Assembly: GCA_964551495.1 (NCBI GenBank)
Contig: CAZKCA010000002.1
Span: forward strand, 19,648 to 83,647
DNA length: 64,000 nt
Source: an uncultured Candidatus Saccharibacteria bacterium
GTDB taxonomy: Bacteria > Patescibacteriota > Minisyncoccia > Phycocordibacterales > DATDWN01
Direction: 5' to 3'
In this document: in pieces, positions 3,265 through 33,755 of the stretch
How positions within the stretch are numbered: position 1 is the first letter of the stretch
How the letters are laid out: each line of letters begins with the position of its first letter
Translations under genes and position numbers: made by a program
The notes under the pieces: generated by a model
The model's database searches: none
What the model saw: only the letters and a program-made list of their open reading frames with translations
What the model was told of the DNA's origin: nothing

Positions 3265-4491
3265 ATGGATAAATTAATTTCTAATAAAAAGCATTTAACA
3301 GTTGGACTCCTTATTATATTAGGAGTGTTTTTTTCTGGATTTTTTATAGGTAAAGCCAATCAGTCTGATAAAAGTAAAATACTAAATGTAACAAACAAGG
3401 ATCCGGAAGGTAATGTTTCTGTTGATTTTTCTCCATTTTGGAAAGCTTGGAATACTATAAATGAAAAATATATACCTACTTCTACTACAACTTCTGAAAT
3501 AGATGATCAAAAAAGACTTTATGGTGCTATAGCTGGTATGACAAAAGCATTGGGTGACCCGTATACTGTATTTTTCCCACCAGTTGAGTCAAAAAGTTTT
3601 GAAGAAGAAATAAGTGGAAACTTTGAAGGGGTTGGAATGGAAATTGGTATAAGAGATGGTGTTTTGACTGTTGTAGCGCCACTTAAAAACACTCCAGCCT
3701 ATAGAGCAGGTATCCTTTCTGGTGATAAAATAATACAAATCAACAACGTTTCCACAAATGATCTAAGTACAGAAGAAGCTGTCTCTATGATAAGAGGTAA
3801 AAGAGGAACAGAGGTTGAATTTACAATGCTAAGAGACGGAGAGGAAGAACCTATTAAAATAAAAGTTATAAGAGATGTTATAGATATTCCTACTATAGAT
3901 ACAGAAATAAAAGGTGATGTTTTTATAATCAGACTTTATAATTTTTCAGCTATTTCACAAAATCTTTTCAGGCAAGCACTACGAGAATTCGTAGAGTCTG
4001 GAAGGTATAAGTTGGTATTGGATTTGAGGGGAAATCCTGGTGGATATTTGGAGGCATCTATAGATATGGCTAGCTGGTTTTTACCACCAGGAAAAGTAGT
4101 GGTTAAAGAAGATTTTAAAGATATATCAAAAAACCAGTCTTTTAGAAGTAAAGGGTATAATATTTTTAATGATTCTTTGAAGATGGTCATTTTGATAGAT
4201 GGTGGTTCTGCTTCAGCTTCTGAAATATTAGCAGGTGCTTTAAATGAACATGGTGTAGCAAAACTTATAGGAACCAAATCTTTTGGAAAAGGATCTGTTC
4301 AAGAGTTGGTAAAAATAACAGACGATACTTCACTAAAAATTACAGTGGCTAGATGGCTTACTCCAAATGGTCATTCTATATCAGATGGAGGATTAACTCC
4401 TGATATAGAAGTTGCTCTAGATATCGAGGCTTTTAAAGAAGGGAAAGATAATCAATTGGAAAAAGCCTTAGAATACTTAAAAGAGTTCTAG
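3265..4491 (+). CDS. S41 family carboxyl-terminal processing peptidase with PDZ domain
   Basis: 408 aa with an N-terminal TM anchor, a PDZ-like GDKIIQINNVSTNDLSTEEAVSMIRG and the S41 core GGSASASEILAGAL. Confidence 0.9.
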   Translation: MDKLISNKKHLTVGLLIILGVFFSGFFIGKANQSDKSKILNVTNKDPEGNVSVDFSPFWKAWNTINEKYIPTSTTTSEIDDQKRLYGAIAGMTKALGDPYTVFFPPVESKSFEEEISGNFEGVGMEIGIRDGVLTVVAPLKNTPAYRAGILSGDKIIQINNVSTNDLSTEEAVSMIRGKRGTEVEFTMLRDGEEEPIKIKVIRDVIDIPTIDTEIKGDVFIIRLYNFSAISQNLFRQALREFVESGRYKLVLDLRGNPGGYLEASIDMASWFLPPGKVVVKEDFKDISKNQSFRSKGYNIFNDSLKMVILIDGGSASASEILAGALNEHGVAKLIGTKSFGKGSVQELVKITDDTSLKITVARWLTPNGHSISDGGLTPDIEVALDIEAFKEGKDNQLEKALEYLKEF

Positions 4492-31233: not shown

Positions 31234-31266
31234 AACCCTCCCTACTTTTTCAAGTGGGAGGGTTTT
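31232..31266. terminator. bidirectional hairpin terminator
   Basis: AAAACCCTCCC...GGGAGGGTTTT. Confidence 0.7.
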
Positions 31267-31363
31267 GTTCTTTATCATCTTTTAATGCTACGTAGTATAA
31301 AGCAAGAACCGTTATAAAAAGACAAAATAGAGCTGTTAACACTAAGGCCATATCAGGATTCAT
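31250..31363 (-). CDS. possible 37-aa single-TM peptide, translationally coupled (ATGA overlap) to the upstream 147-aa ORF
   Basis: My translation is MNPDMALVLTALFCLFITVLALYYVALKDDKEQNPPT. The ATG (31363..31361) overlaps the TGA (31362..31360) of the preceding gene. It is not in the ORF track because it is under 60 aa. Confidence 0.3.
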   Translation of the reverse strand: MNPDMALVLTALFCLFITVLALYYVALKDDKEQNPPT

Positions 31364-31803
31364 TTTCTCACCTTCAATAAAAAGTCGAGAGCGTCCATTA
31401 CGGCCTTGAATTTTTCAAGTGAACAAGACCTTACAAAATCACCCTGTTCTATATTTTCAAAAAAAGATAAAACTTTACTTATAGAATACAGATGATTATC
31501 ATAAAAACCTTCTTTGTTCCTAATGTTCATATTCTTATGAATACTTTTTAGTTTTTTATGATAGATTTTAATTAGTCTAACAAGACATTTATATTCTTCT
31601 CCTCCGTGGATAAAATAAGGTTTATTGCCTATAATAAAATCCACCTCTGCTTCATTTCTAATAAACAAGATTAGAAGCTTTATCTTTTTTAGATCTTCCT
31701 TAGATTCTGTTATCTTTTTCAGCGGATCATAATTAGAATCTCTAATCATTACTAACATTAAAAGACAGAGAACTAAAACAAAGAAAACCACAATGAAGAA
31801 CAT
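31360..31803 (-). CDS. hypothetical membrane-anchored protein
   Basis: 147 aa with an N-terminal TM. AGGAGG SD lies 7 nt before the ATG. No family was recognised. Confidence 0.5.
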   Translation of the reverse strand: MFFIVVFFVLVLCLLMLVMIRDSNYDPLKKITESKEDLKKIKLLILFIRNEAEVDFIIGNKPYFIHGGEEYKCLVRLIKIYHKKLKSIHKNMNIRNKEGFYDNHLYSISKVLSFFENIEQGDFVRSCSLEKFKAVMDALDFLLKVRK

Positions 31804-32241: not shown

Positions 32242-32602
32242 GATACCTAAAATAAAGGGTAGGGGACTTCCCTATTGGGAATAGAAAATTAGTCACTAAA
32301 TCTTTTTATGAGATAAAAGATATTTGACGTATTAGGGGAATAGATAAATATACACGATAAACTAATAATCATAATAAAAATAAACAAATTACATTGAACA
32401 AATTGTTTAAAAGATCAATAAATTATTTTAATAGATTTAAAGAACTTTCTCTCTTATATAGAGTGACCAAAGATATATTGTGCGACGTATAATGTATTTA
32501 TTCCCCTCTGTAAATAAAGACCTTAAATGCAAACTTGAAAATAAAAAATAAATGGAAAAACTCCCTACCCTGTGGTAGTATGGTCCTCGGAGGAATGGAG
32601 AA

Positions 32603-32665
32603 ATGCAGAACAACTACTTTGATCCCCTGGAATTTGAAAAAGGCGGCCGACTTATATCAAATTAA
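32603..32665 (+). CDS. possible 20-aa upstream ORF MQNNYFDPLEFEKGGRLISN, coupled (TAATG) to the next ORF
   Basis: GGAGG (32589-32593) lies 9 nt upstream of ATG 32603. The stop TAA at 32663-32665 overlaps ATG 32665. Confidence 0.25.
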   Translation: MQNNYFDPLEFEKGGRLISN

Positions 32666-33027
32666 TGATTGTTATAATTATTATTTCAATAATACCCCTA
32701 ATGATCTTCGTACAATCTTCTATGAAGTCACTTAGGCAAGACCAGAACAAAGTAAGTTGGATAATGGAAACTAAATTAGAACAAATTGGGCCCTACCACT
32801 ACGTAGGATATGCCAAAGAAAACGGAAAAGAAGGTATCCGAGTTGTTACAATCAACTTAGTAGATTGTCCTAAAGAGTTTAAGTTTCGATTTCCTAAAAA
32901 AGGAGATTTTGTCCGTGTTGAACTTTACAAACAAGAAGAAATAGCAGAGACAAAATCTGGAGACCTTATACTCACCCTTCCTAAAGATTTTATAAAAATG
33001 GGAATACTAGATCCTCAATGTAAATGA
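32665..33027 (+). CDS. hypothetical protein with N-terminal hydrophobic anchor
   Basis: 120 aa (MIVIIIISIIPLMIFVQSS...). No family was recognised. A terminator follows. Confidence 0.5.
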   Translation: MIVIIIISIIPLMIFVQSSMKSLRQDQNKVSWIMETKLEQIGPYHYVGYAKENGKEGIRVVTINLVDCPKEFKFRFPKKGDFVRVELYKQEEIAETKSGDLILTLPKDFIKMGILDPQCK

Positions 33028-33037
33028 CACCAAACTC

Positions 33038-33059
33038 AAAGCCCCTAATCGGGGCTTTT
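33038..33059 (+). terminator. rho-independent terminator
   Basis: AAAGCCCC-taatc-GGGGCTTT. Confidence 0.75.
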
Positions 33060-33101
33060 CTTTATTCAAAAAATGTGATAATTTTTTGTTTGGAGGCGCC
33101 G

Positions 33102-33200
33102 GTGACATTAAAAGAATTGGCGATCGGTTGTCTGACTGGTCTTGCTGTTTTTTCAATAATGACAGCGGCTAGCATAATGTTTTTTCTGAAATGGAGGTGA
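33102..33200 (+). CDS. candidate 32-aa hydrophobic peptide (GTG start) MTLKELAIGCLTGLAVFSIMTAASIMFFLKWR
   Basis: GGAGG (33092-33096) lies 5 nt before GTG 33102. An extended -10 TGtGATAAT is at 33074-33082. The stop TGA overlaps the SD region of the next peptide. Confidence 0.4.
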   Translation: MTLKELAIGCLTGLAVFSIMTAASIMFFLKWR

Positions 33201-33205
33201 CAGGC

Positions 33206-33274
33206 ATGTTTTCCAACGAACAAACCGTTTATGCACTCATTGTCCTTGCCTGGGCAATAACATTTCTTTTCTAA
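33206..33274 (+). CDS. candidate 22-aa hydrophobic peptide MFSNEQTVYALIVLAWAITFLF
   Basis: GGAGG (33193-33197) lies 8 nt before ATG 33206. A terminator follows 9 nt after the stop. Confidence 0.4.
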   Translation: MFSNEQTVYALIVLAWAITFLF

Positions 33275-33282
33275 CCCACAAC

Positions 33283-33304
33283 AAAAGCCCCTTTCGGGGC
33301 TTTT
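33283..33304. terminator. bidirectional terminator
   Basis: AAAAGCCCC-tttc-GGGGCTTTT. Confidence 0.75.
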
Positions 33305-33314
33305 ATCGTGAATA

Positions 33315-33755
33315 TTATTTATTCATAGCAAGAGCGGACTCATATTTACCCCAACAAGCTTTGGATGAAATCCAAGGCTGAGTTCCCTGCTTTTCATACA
33401 ATTTTCTTGCATAAGCAGTGTTACCTTCTATGGAATAAATATTATAATTCTCTTTTTCTGCTGTCTCTAAGTGGTAATACTCGTTTATTTGCATTACACC
33501 CACGTCAGCATTATTTACTTTTCCTCTATGAACTTCTCCTTTGGAGTCTAGATGTCTAAATGTTGATTCACATTTAGCAATCTCAATCATAATCGGAATA
33601 TCTGAGAAGTACTGTCTAATATACTGTTCAGTACTCATTAATTTTTCAACGTCCTTCTTTGAAACTTCTCTCACTAACTGAGGCTTTTGTTCTGGTATTT
33701 CGGTTACAGTAACTGGACTGTTAATACCTGATATACTTCCCAAAGCCATAAACAA
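33315..33755 (-). CDS. lysozyme-like / lytic transglycosylase (SLT-type) domain protein
   Basis: IAKCESTFRHLD...NNADVGVMQINEYYH shows the catalytic E-S plus the GxMQI(N) pattern. A signal-peptide-like stretch (LILQFTVVSLFMALGSISG) extends upstream of the first canonical start, so the true start is uncertain. Confidence 0.7.
   Translation of the reverse strand: MFMALGSISGINSPVTVTEIPEQKPQLVREVSKKDVEKLMSTEQYIRQYFSDIPIMIEIAKCESTFRHLDSKGEVHRGKVNNADVGVMQINEYYHLETAEKENYNIYSIEGNTAYARKLYEKQGTQPWISSKACWGKYESALAMNK

Follow-up and report, generated by a model that had tools for sequence, protein, structure and literature searches.

The locus described here lies in a 64,000-nt stretch of DNA, hereafter the window, from an uncultured Candidatus Saccharibacteria bacterium (GTDB lineage Bacteria; Patescibacteriota; Minisyncoccia; Phycocordibacterales; DATDWN01), corresponding to positions 19,648-83,647 of the forward strand of contig CAZKCA010000002.1 in assembly GCA_964551495.1. 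Between the gene p120 and a convergent gene for a lysozyme-like protein of 146 amino acids (aa) sit two consecutive small open reading frames (sORFs), ORF1 and ORF2, each predicted to encode a hydrophobic peptide with a single helix. A first-pass annotation of the same DNA had singled out the pair as a compact unit running from promoter to terminator. The features of the unit, in window coordinates, are as follows, with SD denoting a Shine-Dalgarno sequence.

33038-33058, plus strand: intrinsic terminator that ends p120, the gene upstream, AAAGCCCC-taatc-GGGGCTTT with a T-rich tail; 8 pairs, 5 of them GC, from a consensus scan
33074-33082, plus strand: extended -10-like promoter TGtGATAAT, TGTGATAAT, with the core GATAAT at 33077-33082
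33092-33096, plus strand: SD GGAGG of ORF1, 5 nt upstream of GTG 33102 and invariant in five strains
33102-33200, plus strand: ORF1, 32 aa, GTG start, (M)TLKELAIGCLTGLAVFSIMTAASIMFFLKWR = MTLKELAIGCLTGLAVFSIMTAASIMFFLKWR, a single hydrophobic helix
33193-33197, plus strand: SD GGAGG of ORF2, inside the last codons of ORF1 (TGG AGG TGA), 8 nt upstream of ATG 33206
33206-33274, plus strand: ORF2, 22 aa, MFSNEQTVYALIVLAWAITFLF, polar MFSNEQT followed by a 15-residue hydrophobic C-terminus
33283-33304, both strands: bidirectional GC-rich hairpin terminator AAAAGCCCC-tttc-GGGGCTTTT, core GCCCC-tttc-GGGGC at 33287-33300, with AAAA/TTTT flanks
33315-33755, minus strand: convergent SLT-like gene, 146 aa, with a sub-threshold match to the 'lysozyme-like' family SLT_3 (E=0.01)

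The unit was compared with related loci, 167 of which were fetched through the SLT-like gene (counts of sites given below use 169 loci and the window, or 170 sequences). Four loci came from near-identical strains (L001, L002, L168 and L169). A sister lineage was represented by L003-L006 and L088, in which the 146-aa neighbour protein is 90% identical, and a next lineage by L007, L008 and L089, at 82% identity; approximately 150 further, more distant loci from genomes and metagenomes were also compared. A metagenome scan added no close relatives to those already collected, and an exact-protein look-up with the neighbouring M23 peptidase matched no record.

The extended -10, both GGAGG motifs and both start codons, with the peptide lengths derived from them, stand exactly where the first-pass annotation had placed them. 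ORF1 is laid out as a polar MTLKE start, a 24-residue hydrophobic stretch containing G9xxxG13 and a conserved Cys10, and a basic KWR end; the 15-residue Kyte-Doolittle maxima are 2.2 for ORF1 and 2.5 for ORF2. The leader is about 12 nt, the -10 ending at 33082 and the start codon lying at 33102. Placement of the second SD within the end of ORF1 suggests translational coupling, and this SD reads GGAGA in one strain through a synonymous AGG to AGA change. An alternative in-frame start for ORF2, ATG 33191, would yield 27 aa and has no SD. The upstream terminator is kept in all five strain variants and forms the 5' boundary of the unit, which is thus bracketed by two terminators; the upstream one closely resembles the hairpin downstream. 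The downstream hairpin is common to the convergent SLT-like gene and the sORF unit, recurs in both L007 and L003, and folds as a 9-bp stem; it was absent from the consensus terminator scan because extension of the stem through the A/T flanks uses up the T-tail. The hairpin itself had been recognized correctly, but its spacing needs amending, as the extended stem AAAAGCCCC begins 8 nt past the ORF2 stop and GCCCC 12 nt past it, rather than the 9 nt originally given. In strain L002 (~945-965) the loop of this shared terminator is GAAA, the reverse complement of the TTTC in the window, on an unchanged stem.

Comparison with the sister lineage supports coding. Between the window and L003, flanking gene DNA is 87% identical and flanking intergenic DNA 87.5% identical; the sORF cassette is no longer alignable by local DNA alignment. 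The order of elements in L003 is a terminator, a -10 (ATGATAAT), a 19-nt leader with GAGGTG, two ORFs and a terminator, and the distance from hexamer to start codon is 19 nt in both. The idea of a compact promoter-to-terminator unit gains from this sister lineage, where the -10 and its distance to the start have been retained. The first L003 ORF, ATG-MSLTLKEVILVMMVILLAIILTVMRIK, encodes 27 aa ending in RIK, and the second, MTVKEISIGCLIPTFVIVLALILARSIMYFLKQ, encodes 33 aa and joins the first through an ATGA overlap. ORF1 and the 33-aa peptide share 17 of 31 residues, 10 of them specified by different codons (e.g. Ser AGC/TCA, Leu CTG/TTA), with differences at the three codon positions of 14/7/20 and conservative replacements; in the wrong frames the corresponding identities were ~3/10 and 5/18. 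The C-terminal half of the second L003 ORF is the counterpart of ORF2 in both position and frame: 7 of 15 residues are shared (5 by different codons), the position differences are 4/4/10, and the frame of ORF2 is kept since the single indel in this alignment is 3 nt. Furthermore, the N-terminus of the first L003 ORF (MSLTLKE) matches MTLKE of ORF1. Conservation within the ORF1 family is highest in the C-terminal SIM[FY]FLK. Judged by these residue and frame matches among ORF1, ORF2 and both L003 ORFs, the window pair and the L003 pair are four diverged tandem paralogues, and on the same comparison the two-ORF layout with its stop/start junction is ancestral rather than a recent frameshift.

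Variation among strains is consistent with this pattern. Across five strain variants, four synonymous substitutions and one conservative replacement (S18A) are seen in ORF1, the DNA of ORF2 is 100% identical, and, strain by strain, the 43-nt promoter/leader region departs from the window at between 0 and 4 positions. Neither ORF was called in any of the five assemblies checked. Taken together, the substitutions provide good evidence of protein-coding selection on both ORFs: the frames are conserved in homologous regions, so that the proposal passes a check set by the first-pass annotation, and both behave at the codon level as the genes for single-helix hydrophobic peptides that the first-pass annotation had proposed. 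These patterns bear directly on the possibility that the region has no protein function and is either rapidly changing intergenic DNA with chance or decaying frames in it or a small RNA. Hydrophobic ORFs arise readily in AT-rich genomes, the family is limited to a single narrow clade, and the region is richer in GC (0.40-0.45) than its flanks and folds well, all of which would suit such an origin. That explanation is nevertheless quite unlikely given the 14/7/20 codon-position pattern with 10 synonymous replacements at conserved residues, the retention of frame across the 3-nt indel of ORF2, and the persistence of SD, start and stop architecture despite unalignable DNA. Searches of Rfam also returned no match at E <=1 over 31-35 kb of the window, and none in five related loci.

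In order to estimate how often such ORFs arise by chance, both strands of the window were scanned for ORFs of 18-60 aa that have a start codon behind a strong SD (GGAGG, AGGAG or GAGGT) and whose Kyte-Doolittle mean over 15 residues reaches 2.0 or more. The scan passed at only three stop codons, those of ORF1, ORF2 and one frame inside a 654-aa gene, so that the window's intergenic DNA contains no strong-SD hydrophobic sORF other than ORF1 and ORF2. In one hundred block shuffles of the window such ORFs averaged 0.61 per 128 kb of strand, a further argument against fortuitous frames. Strong SDs are rare among the larger window genes, occurring in 2 of 47, and at many of the 47 larger ORF starts a TATAAT-like hexamer stands 7-13 nt ahead of the ATG. 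Because this hexamer lies only a few bases upstream of most ATGs, the window genes are suggested to use mostly leaderless mRNAs or SD-independent initiation. In lineage-specific cargo genes (p120, the sORFs, the 147-aa orphan p147 described below, and analogues in relatives) GGAGG is found on a leader of ~19 nt. Given the rarity of strong SDs and the low shuffle expectation, two well-spaced GGAGG motifs before consecutive small ORFs are conspicuous.

The family is restricted to a narrow lineage. A hidden Markov model of the ORF1 family, run against 25,556 six-frame segments from 167 loci and the window (168 sequences), recovered members only in the window and L003 lineages, and tblastn (PAM30) searches of the peptides against the fetched loci gave only noise beyond these two close lineages. 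The suggestion that relatives might hold co-occurring small ORFs is borne out for the L003 lineage, which has a tandem pair, and not beyond it, as the 167 loci contained no further members. A fused ORF1 and ORF2 profile searched against 5.8 billion proteins found one match, a 62-aa miscalled ORF lying over the L003 pair. Neither the sORF peptides nor p120 or p147 had a credible match in Pfam, NCBIfam, PADLOC or PHROGs. In the lineage at 82% identity an unrelated-looking 41-aa hydrophobic ORF, MSQQKKINFEFYIWIAKKICGSLLVFLIITFLAILAFKRFF, occupies the same place before the same terminator, and in relatives whose 146-aa protein is at most 72% identical no such ORF adjoins the 146-aa gene. A conserved 65-73-aa protein with a single transmembrane (TM) helix (MKNNRGFIGRIVLLIIAVIALKYFLDFDIIEW...) lies directly 3' of the M23 peptidase gene in a number of relatives (L010 at 3901-4095 on the minus strand, L013, L105, L104, L102, L020 and others); Pfam yielded no family above threshold for it, and by tblastn neither the window nor L003 or L007 has a copy. 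It was considered as a source of the sORFs and rejected, as its gene directly follows the M23 gene, outside the slot that holds the sORFs, and has no match in the window.

The gene content around the unit includes MurG, GltX, the M23 peptidase, a YgaP-like membrane protein, p120, the SLT-like gene and a 1,073-aa PA14 surface protein, and no transporter, immunity gene or partner gene was seen among the neighbours of the sORFs. The first-pass annotation had considered an association with the lysozyme-like gene resembling a lysis cassette. The 146-aa protein has 1,176 homologues, the named ones belonging to Candidatus Zambryskibacteria, Minisyncoccia and Patescibacteria. The sORF1 family occurs only where the 146-aa protein is at least 90% identical, and in nearly all relatives the SLT-like gene is present without sORFs. 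Since relatives at 72% identity or less have no sORFs, the association with the lysozyme-like gene is not conserved; the SLT_3 match is moreover weak, and the gene is convergent and not co-transcribed with the pair. The lysis-cassette idea thus finds no support. Elsewhere in the neighbourhood, at 31250-31803 on the minus strand, another lineage-specific pair was observed in which the 147-aa orphan p147 (SD AGGAGGG) overlaps through ATGA a 37-aa single-TM ORF, MNPDMALVLTALFCLFITVLALYYVALKDDKEQNPPT; tblastn found no copy of this pair in any related locus, L003 included.

The gene preceding the unit was also examined.

32603-33027, plus strand: p120, an N-terminal TM helix and a domain of ~85 aa; ancestral start ATG 32603 with SD GGAGG

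The window copy of p120 is interrupted, giving a 20-aa ORF that ends in TAATG and a restart at 32665. The gene encodes 146 aa in L169 and 141 aa in L168, with N-terminal indels, and in L001 (~position 1929) it has suffered a 52-nt frameshifting deletion while the sORFs there are intact and identical. Its product is 42% identical to that of L003, compared with 77-93% for flanking proteins. Homologues were found at strain level only; 2.9 million viral contigs and 50,697 phage records yielded none. An AlphaFold2 model reached a predicted local distance difference test score (pLDDT) of 43, too low for a fold search. By these sequence measures p120 is a fast-evolving orphan. Its 5' leader at 32555-32602 (AAACTCCCTACCCTGTGGTAGTAT..CCTCGGAGGA) holds a small hairpin and the SD and is conserved between the window and L003 above the level of the p120 coding sequence; it may be a regulatory structure.

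The integrity of the sORFs where p120 is split or truncated indicates that they are independent of it, which argues against p120 as an obligatory immunity or antitoxin partner. This is of consequence for the possibility that the peptides are exported, either as a leaderless two-peptide bacteriocin or cytolysin with p120 as its immunity protein, or as precursors of hydrophobic signalling peptides. Such a role would suit a pair of small peptides expressed together behind strong expression signals, the GxxxG of ORF1, and the C-terminal position of the best-conserved segment in the ORF1 family, SIM[FY]FLK. The peptides are, like p120, identical within a type and very divergent between types, a pattern seen at toxin/immunity and pheromone loci. 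An exported pair is nonetheless improbable: there is no double-glycine leader and no bacteriocin-family match, the neighbouring genes include no ABC transporter, C39 peptidase or receptor, ORF2 is net negative and non-amphipathic, and the state of p120 in the window and L001 speaks against an essential immunity protein.

A type I toxin-antitoxin-like module was also considered, in which one or more membrane-depolarising toxins would be silenced by an antisense or nearby small RNA (sRNA) and would serve in stress, phage defence or addiction. The size of the peptides (32 and 22 aa, both below 60 aa), their single hydrophobic helix and the basic C-terminus would fit such toxins, as would an orphan, lineage-specific family in a variable island. 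Tandem duplication is common among type I toxins. Both the mRNA and the antisense strand fold better than shuffled sequences (z = -2.9 for the plus-strand transcript, z = -3.7 for the antisense strand), and a HicA/HicB-like pair was seen by eye in the same slot of L084, suggesting that addiction modules may land there. Other properties are difficult to reconcile with this arrangement. A consensus scan, which a weak or atypical promoter could escape, found no sigma-70-like minus-strand promoter in 33060-33300. The leader of ~12 nt with its exposed, perfect SD is not the usual long, structured 5' untranslated region that occludes the SD; in the minimum free energy fold the SD of ORF1 is paired weakly with a distant U-rich stretch. 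Two coupled cistrons are atypical, the unit is single copy in 64 kb, and no match to Hok, Fst/Ldr, TisB, Ibs, ShoB or any other toxin was found in Pfam, NCBIfam or PADLOC, where the peptides matched no toxin family even at E <=10. A type I module is therefore viewed as an unlikely identity for the pair.

The position of the unit on the chromosome was examined through base composition. GC skew is +0.13 to +0.15 over 2-30 kb of the window and -0.1 to -0.25 from 33 kb on, the cumulative GC-skew maximum falls at ~30-34 kb, and genes lie on the plus strand to the left of it and on the minus strand to the right. From the change in skew sign, the cumulative maximum and the flip in gene orientation, the sORF pair is located at the replication terminus. 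Neither this location, beside a dif-like site in a hypervariable slot, nor the paralogy of the peptides was part of the first-pass annotation.

32461-32488, plus strand: dif-like site gagtgaccaaa-GATATA-TTGTGCGACgt (11-6-11), the left border of the variable slot

The site falls within the GC-skew switch. An 18-mer inside it, AAAGATATATTGTGCGAC (32469-32486), lies ~620 nt upstream of the pair. It is near-invariant in 134 of 170 sequences and never changes its orientation with respect to the 146-aa gene. With its flanks the consensus is nnnnnnCAAAA-GATATA-TTGTGCGACRT. Sites of the dif type are defined by two 11-bp imperfect inverted arms around 6 bp, at the replication terminus (PMC2958812). Comparison of the left arm with the reverse-complemented right arm gave a mean of 5.3 matches out of 11, against 2.7 in the control, and 14 of 103 sites reached at least 8 of 11 (e.g. 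ACGTCGCAAAA-GGTATA-TTGTGCGACGT). The reverse complement of the 18-mer matches 14 of 18 positions of the core of the E. coli dif site. At up to 4 mismatches the 18-mer is single copy in the 64-kb window, the window rather than a whole genome being the scope of that count. The element at 32461-32488 is the probable dif (Xer) site of this group of Patescibacteria, judging from its sequence and position.

Several structures were observed around the dif-like core in relatives. Two hairpins, P1 (..AUUUUGCGA../..GUUGCAAAAU..) and P2 (AUCUUUUG-variable-CAAAAGAU), precede the core in L119 (2474-2573, minus strand), L049, L145, L111, L045, L064, L041, L035, L104, L100 and L013; their arms resemble inverted half-sites of the core. 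Compensatory changes occur in 19 of 32 pairs of P1/P2, and a covariance model matches 11 of 84 sources. The 18-mer was considered as part of a structured RNA and this was rejected, the hairpins being present in 11/84 sources compared with 134/170 sequences for the 18-mer, with no Rfam match. Given their rarity relative to the 18-mer, the hairpins are better read as lineage-specific flanks and the 18-mer as a DNA site. In L016, L025, L034, L090 and L099 the right arm GTGCGACAT occurs twice downstream of the 18-mer with a hairpin of ~50-60 nt between, and L090 shows by eye tandem units of ~63 nt that repeat this right-arm arrangement; the repeated arms could be duplicated half-sites or small elements inserted at the dif-like site. 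A conserved palindrome, TAGGGGACTTCCCTA, lies at 32258-32275 in the window, shortly 3' of the gene upstream of the dif-like site, and is also present in L003, L007, L018, L020, L035, L102 and L104; the scan scored it as a minus-strand terminator.

In most relatives the slot measures 30-320 nt from the dif-like site to where the 146-aa gene ends; in some lineages it is expanded. Among the expanded slots no longer than ~1 kb, most have a first gene whose start codon is preceded by a -10 and a leader of ~17-20 nt (longer in L101) carrying GGAGG, and by manual count this gene encodes a membrane protein in 11 of ~17 cases. Small SD-led membrane ORFs unrelated to the pair occupy the slot in L020 (45 and 28 aa in tandem), L089 (41 aa), L101 (59 aa), L146 (74 aa) and L018 (79 aa), and membrane proteins of ~150 aa are found in L103 and L023. 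In the window lineage the slot holds p120 followed by the sORF pair. Inspection of long slots by eye further revealed a NUDIX-like protein with the HicB/HicA-like pair of L084, and LexA-, DsbA- and VKOR-like proteins in L046 and L054; no phage or integrase signature was seen in the slots. Across the loci compared, the slot is a hypervariable cargo site.

A site of this kind invites the explanation that the unit is the relic of a dif-integrated mobile element exploiting Xer recombination (IMEX), such as a filamentous phage, with the ORFs corresponding to the minor coat proteins pVII and pIX. The unit lies directly beside the dif-like site at the terminus, cargo genes use SDs as core genes do not, and its tandem hydrophobic ORFs of ~30 aa adjoin closely, through an ATGA overlap in L003 and an SD within the stop region in the window. 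The phage proteins pVII and pIX are of similar length, at 33 and 32 aa, and their genes overlap. ORF1 ends in KWR and the first L003 ORF in RIK, and in Ff phage pVII and pIX, proteins of the tip that are made as integral membrane proteins, touch DNA through C-terminal Arg 33 (pVII) and Arg 26 (pIX) (PMC10175506). A phage relic is still highly improbable. Genes for Rep, a Zot/pI ATPase, a major coat protein or an integrase-like protein are missing from the surroundings, the window has no second dif-like copy bordering the cargo, there is no PHROG match, and long slots elsewhere hold, by eye, ordinary cellular-type genes. No relative was found in the 2.9 million viral contigs or 50,697 phage records, in the latter of which ORF1 gave only chance-level matches (E = 0.3). 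A broader version, in which the pair is one allele of a hitherto unrecognised slot that in Paceibacteria repeatedly gains different self-promoted, SD-led genes, mostly encoding small membrane proteins, perhaps by an Xer-mediated (IMEX-like) route, and the sORFs would be mobile, membrane-active peptides of toxin-like or phage coat-derived rather than housekeeping character, is a long shot.

The reading that we favour, at somewhat better than even chances, is that the region is a self-contained bicistronic accessory unit encoding two diverged, paralogous single-helix membrane peptides, carried as cargo in the terminus slot. Transcription would start ~7 nt past GATAAT, giving a leader of ~12 nt with a perfect GGAGG, and would end at the hairpin held in common with the convergent gene. 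ORF1 would be translated first and ORF2 from the second GGAGG within the last codons of ORF1; because the ORF2 SD is built into the end of ORF1, the two peptides would be made together. Both would then insert into the cell's own cytoplasmic membrane, ORF1 being anchored by its basic KWR end, and they probably associate through small-residue faces (GxxxG in ORF1) into a hetero-oligomeric accessory membrane component. The unit would be non-essential, non-core cargo that, with p120, fills the slot between the dif-like site and the SLT-like gene. That both ORFs are translated into membrane peptides is very probable. A benign accessory or modulator role is plausible at a little less than even chances, while a role as a membrane-damaging toxin is rather unlikely.

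Several observations weigh against this reading. The family is carried by only two divergent lineages and five near-identical strains, so the selection statistics rest on a few dozen codons, and T-rich codons in AT-rich DNA give hydrophobic ORFs easily. The sORF promoter has no good -35 element, and the TG of its extended -10 is not fixed between strains, being replaced in three of five (TATGATAAT). The hydrophobic stretch of ORF2, at 15 residues and with no charged anchor, is short for a membrane-spanning helix. Since the transcript folds better than shuffled sequences, conservation could lie partly at the RNA level, with which the total invariance of ORF2, synonymous sites included, is compatible. 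Finally, there is no partner complex or conserved neighbour to hint at a role.

Small membrane proteins are routinely missed in annotation, and Patescibacteria, with their tiny genomes and host-attached habit, are nearly unexplored in this respect; a literature search on small proteins and type I toxins in Patescibacteria and the Candidate Phyla Radiation found nothing relevant. The present case documents selected micro-genes in this phylum and their quick turnover at one chromosomal hot spot. The importance of the pair itself is modest, as it is an orphan with no assigned role and a very narrow range. The terminus, with a candidate dif site that is near-invariant throughout the class and an adjoining cargo slot, is possibly more useful than the pair, as this context could aid in orienting and closing Patescibacteria assemblies, finding accessory genes and studying chromosome dimer resolution.

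Set beside known systems, the pair combines features of several. Phage holin-endolysin cassettes likewise place small membrane proteins next to a lysozyme-like (SLT-type) gene; here, however, the genes are convergent with a terminator between them, the SLT-like gene is a conserved core gene and no PHROG holin match was found. Filamentous-phage pVII/pIX genes and IMEX share with the locus tandem, overlapping hydrophobic ORFs of ~30 aa beside a dif-like site, whereas the pair stands without other phage genes, a second dif copy or viral relatives. Two-peptide (class IIb) and leaderless bacteriocins are similarly encoded by two adjacent small ORFs on one transcript, and GxxxG is a further point of likeness, but class IIb pairs have the motif in both peptides and here it is confined to ORF1; there is also no GG leader, transporter or dedicated immunity gene, and the peptides are not cationic-amphipathic. 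Type I toxins (Hok, Fst/Ldr, TisB, IbsC, ShoB) are alike in size, hydrophobicity, basic end, tandem paralogues and patchy, lineage-specific spread, and differ in that the pair has a very short unstructured leader and coupled cistrons, with no antisense promoter found and no sequence match. Small membrane proteins of up to 50 aa such as AcrZ, KdpF, CydX and MgtS have their genes within or next to the operon of the complex that they modulate and are conserved across genera, whereas the pair has no such partner or family and occurs in two lineages only; it shares with them a single helix, a length of 20-40 aa, an SD of its own and the usual absence from gene calls. The sORF pair is a new orphan family of a well-known kind, the small hydrophobic proteins of bacteria, in a poorly studied phylum.

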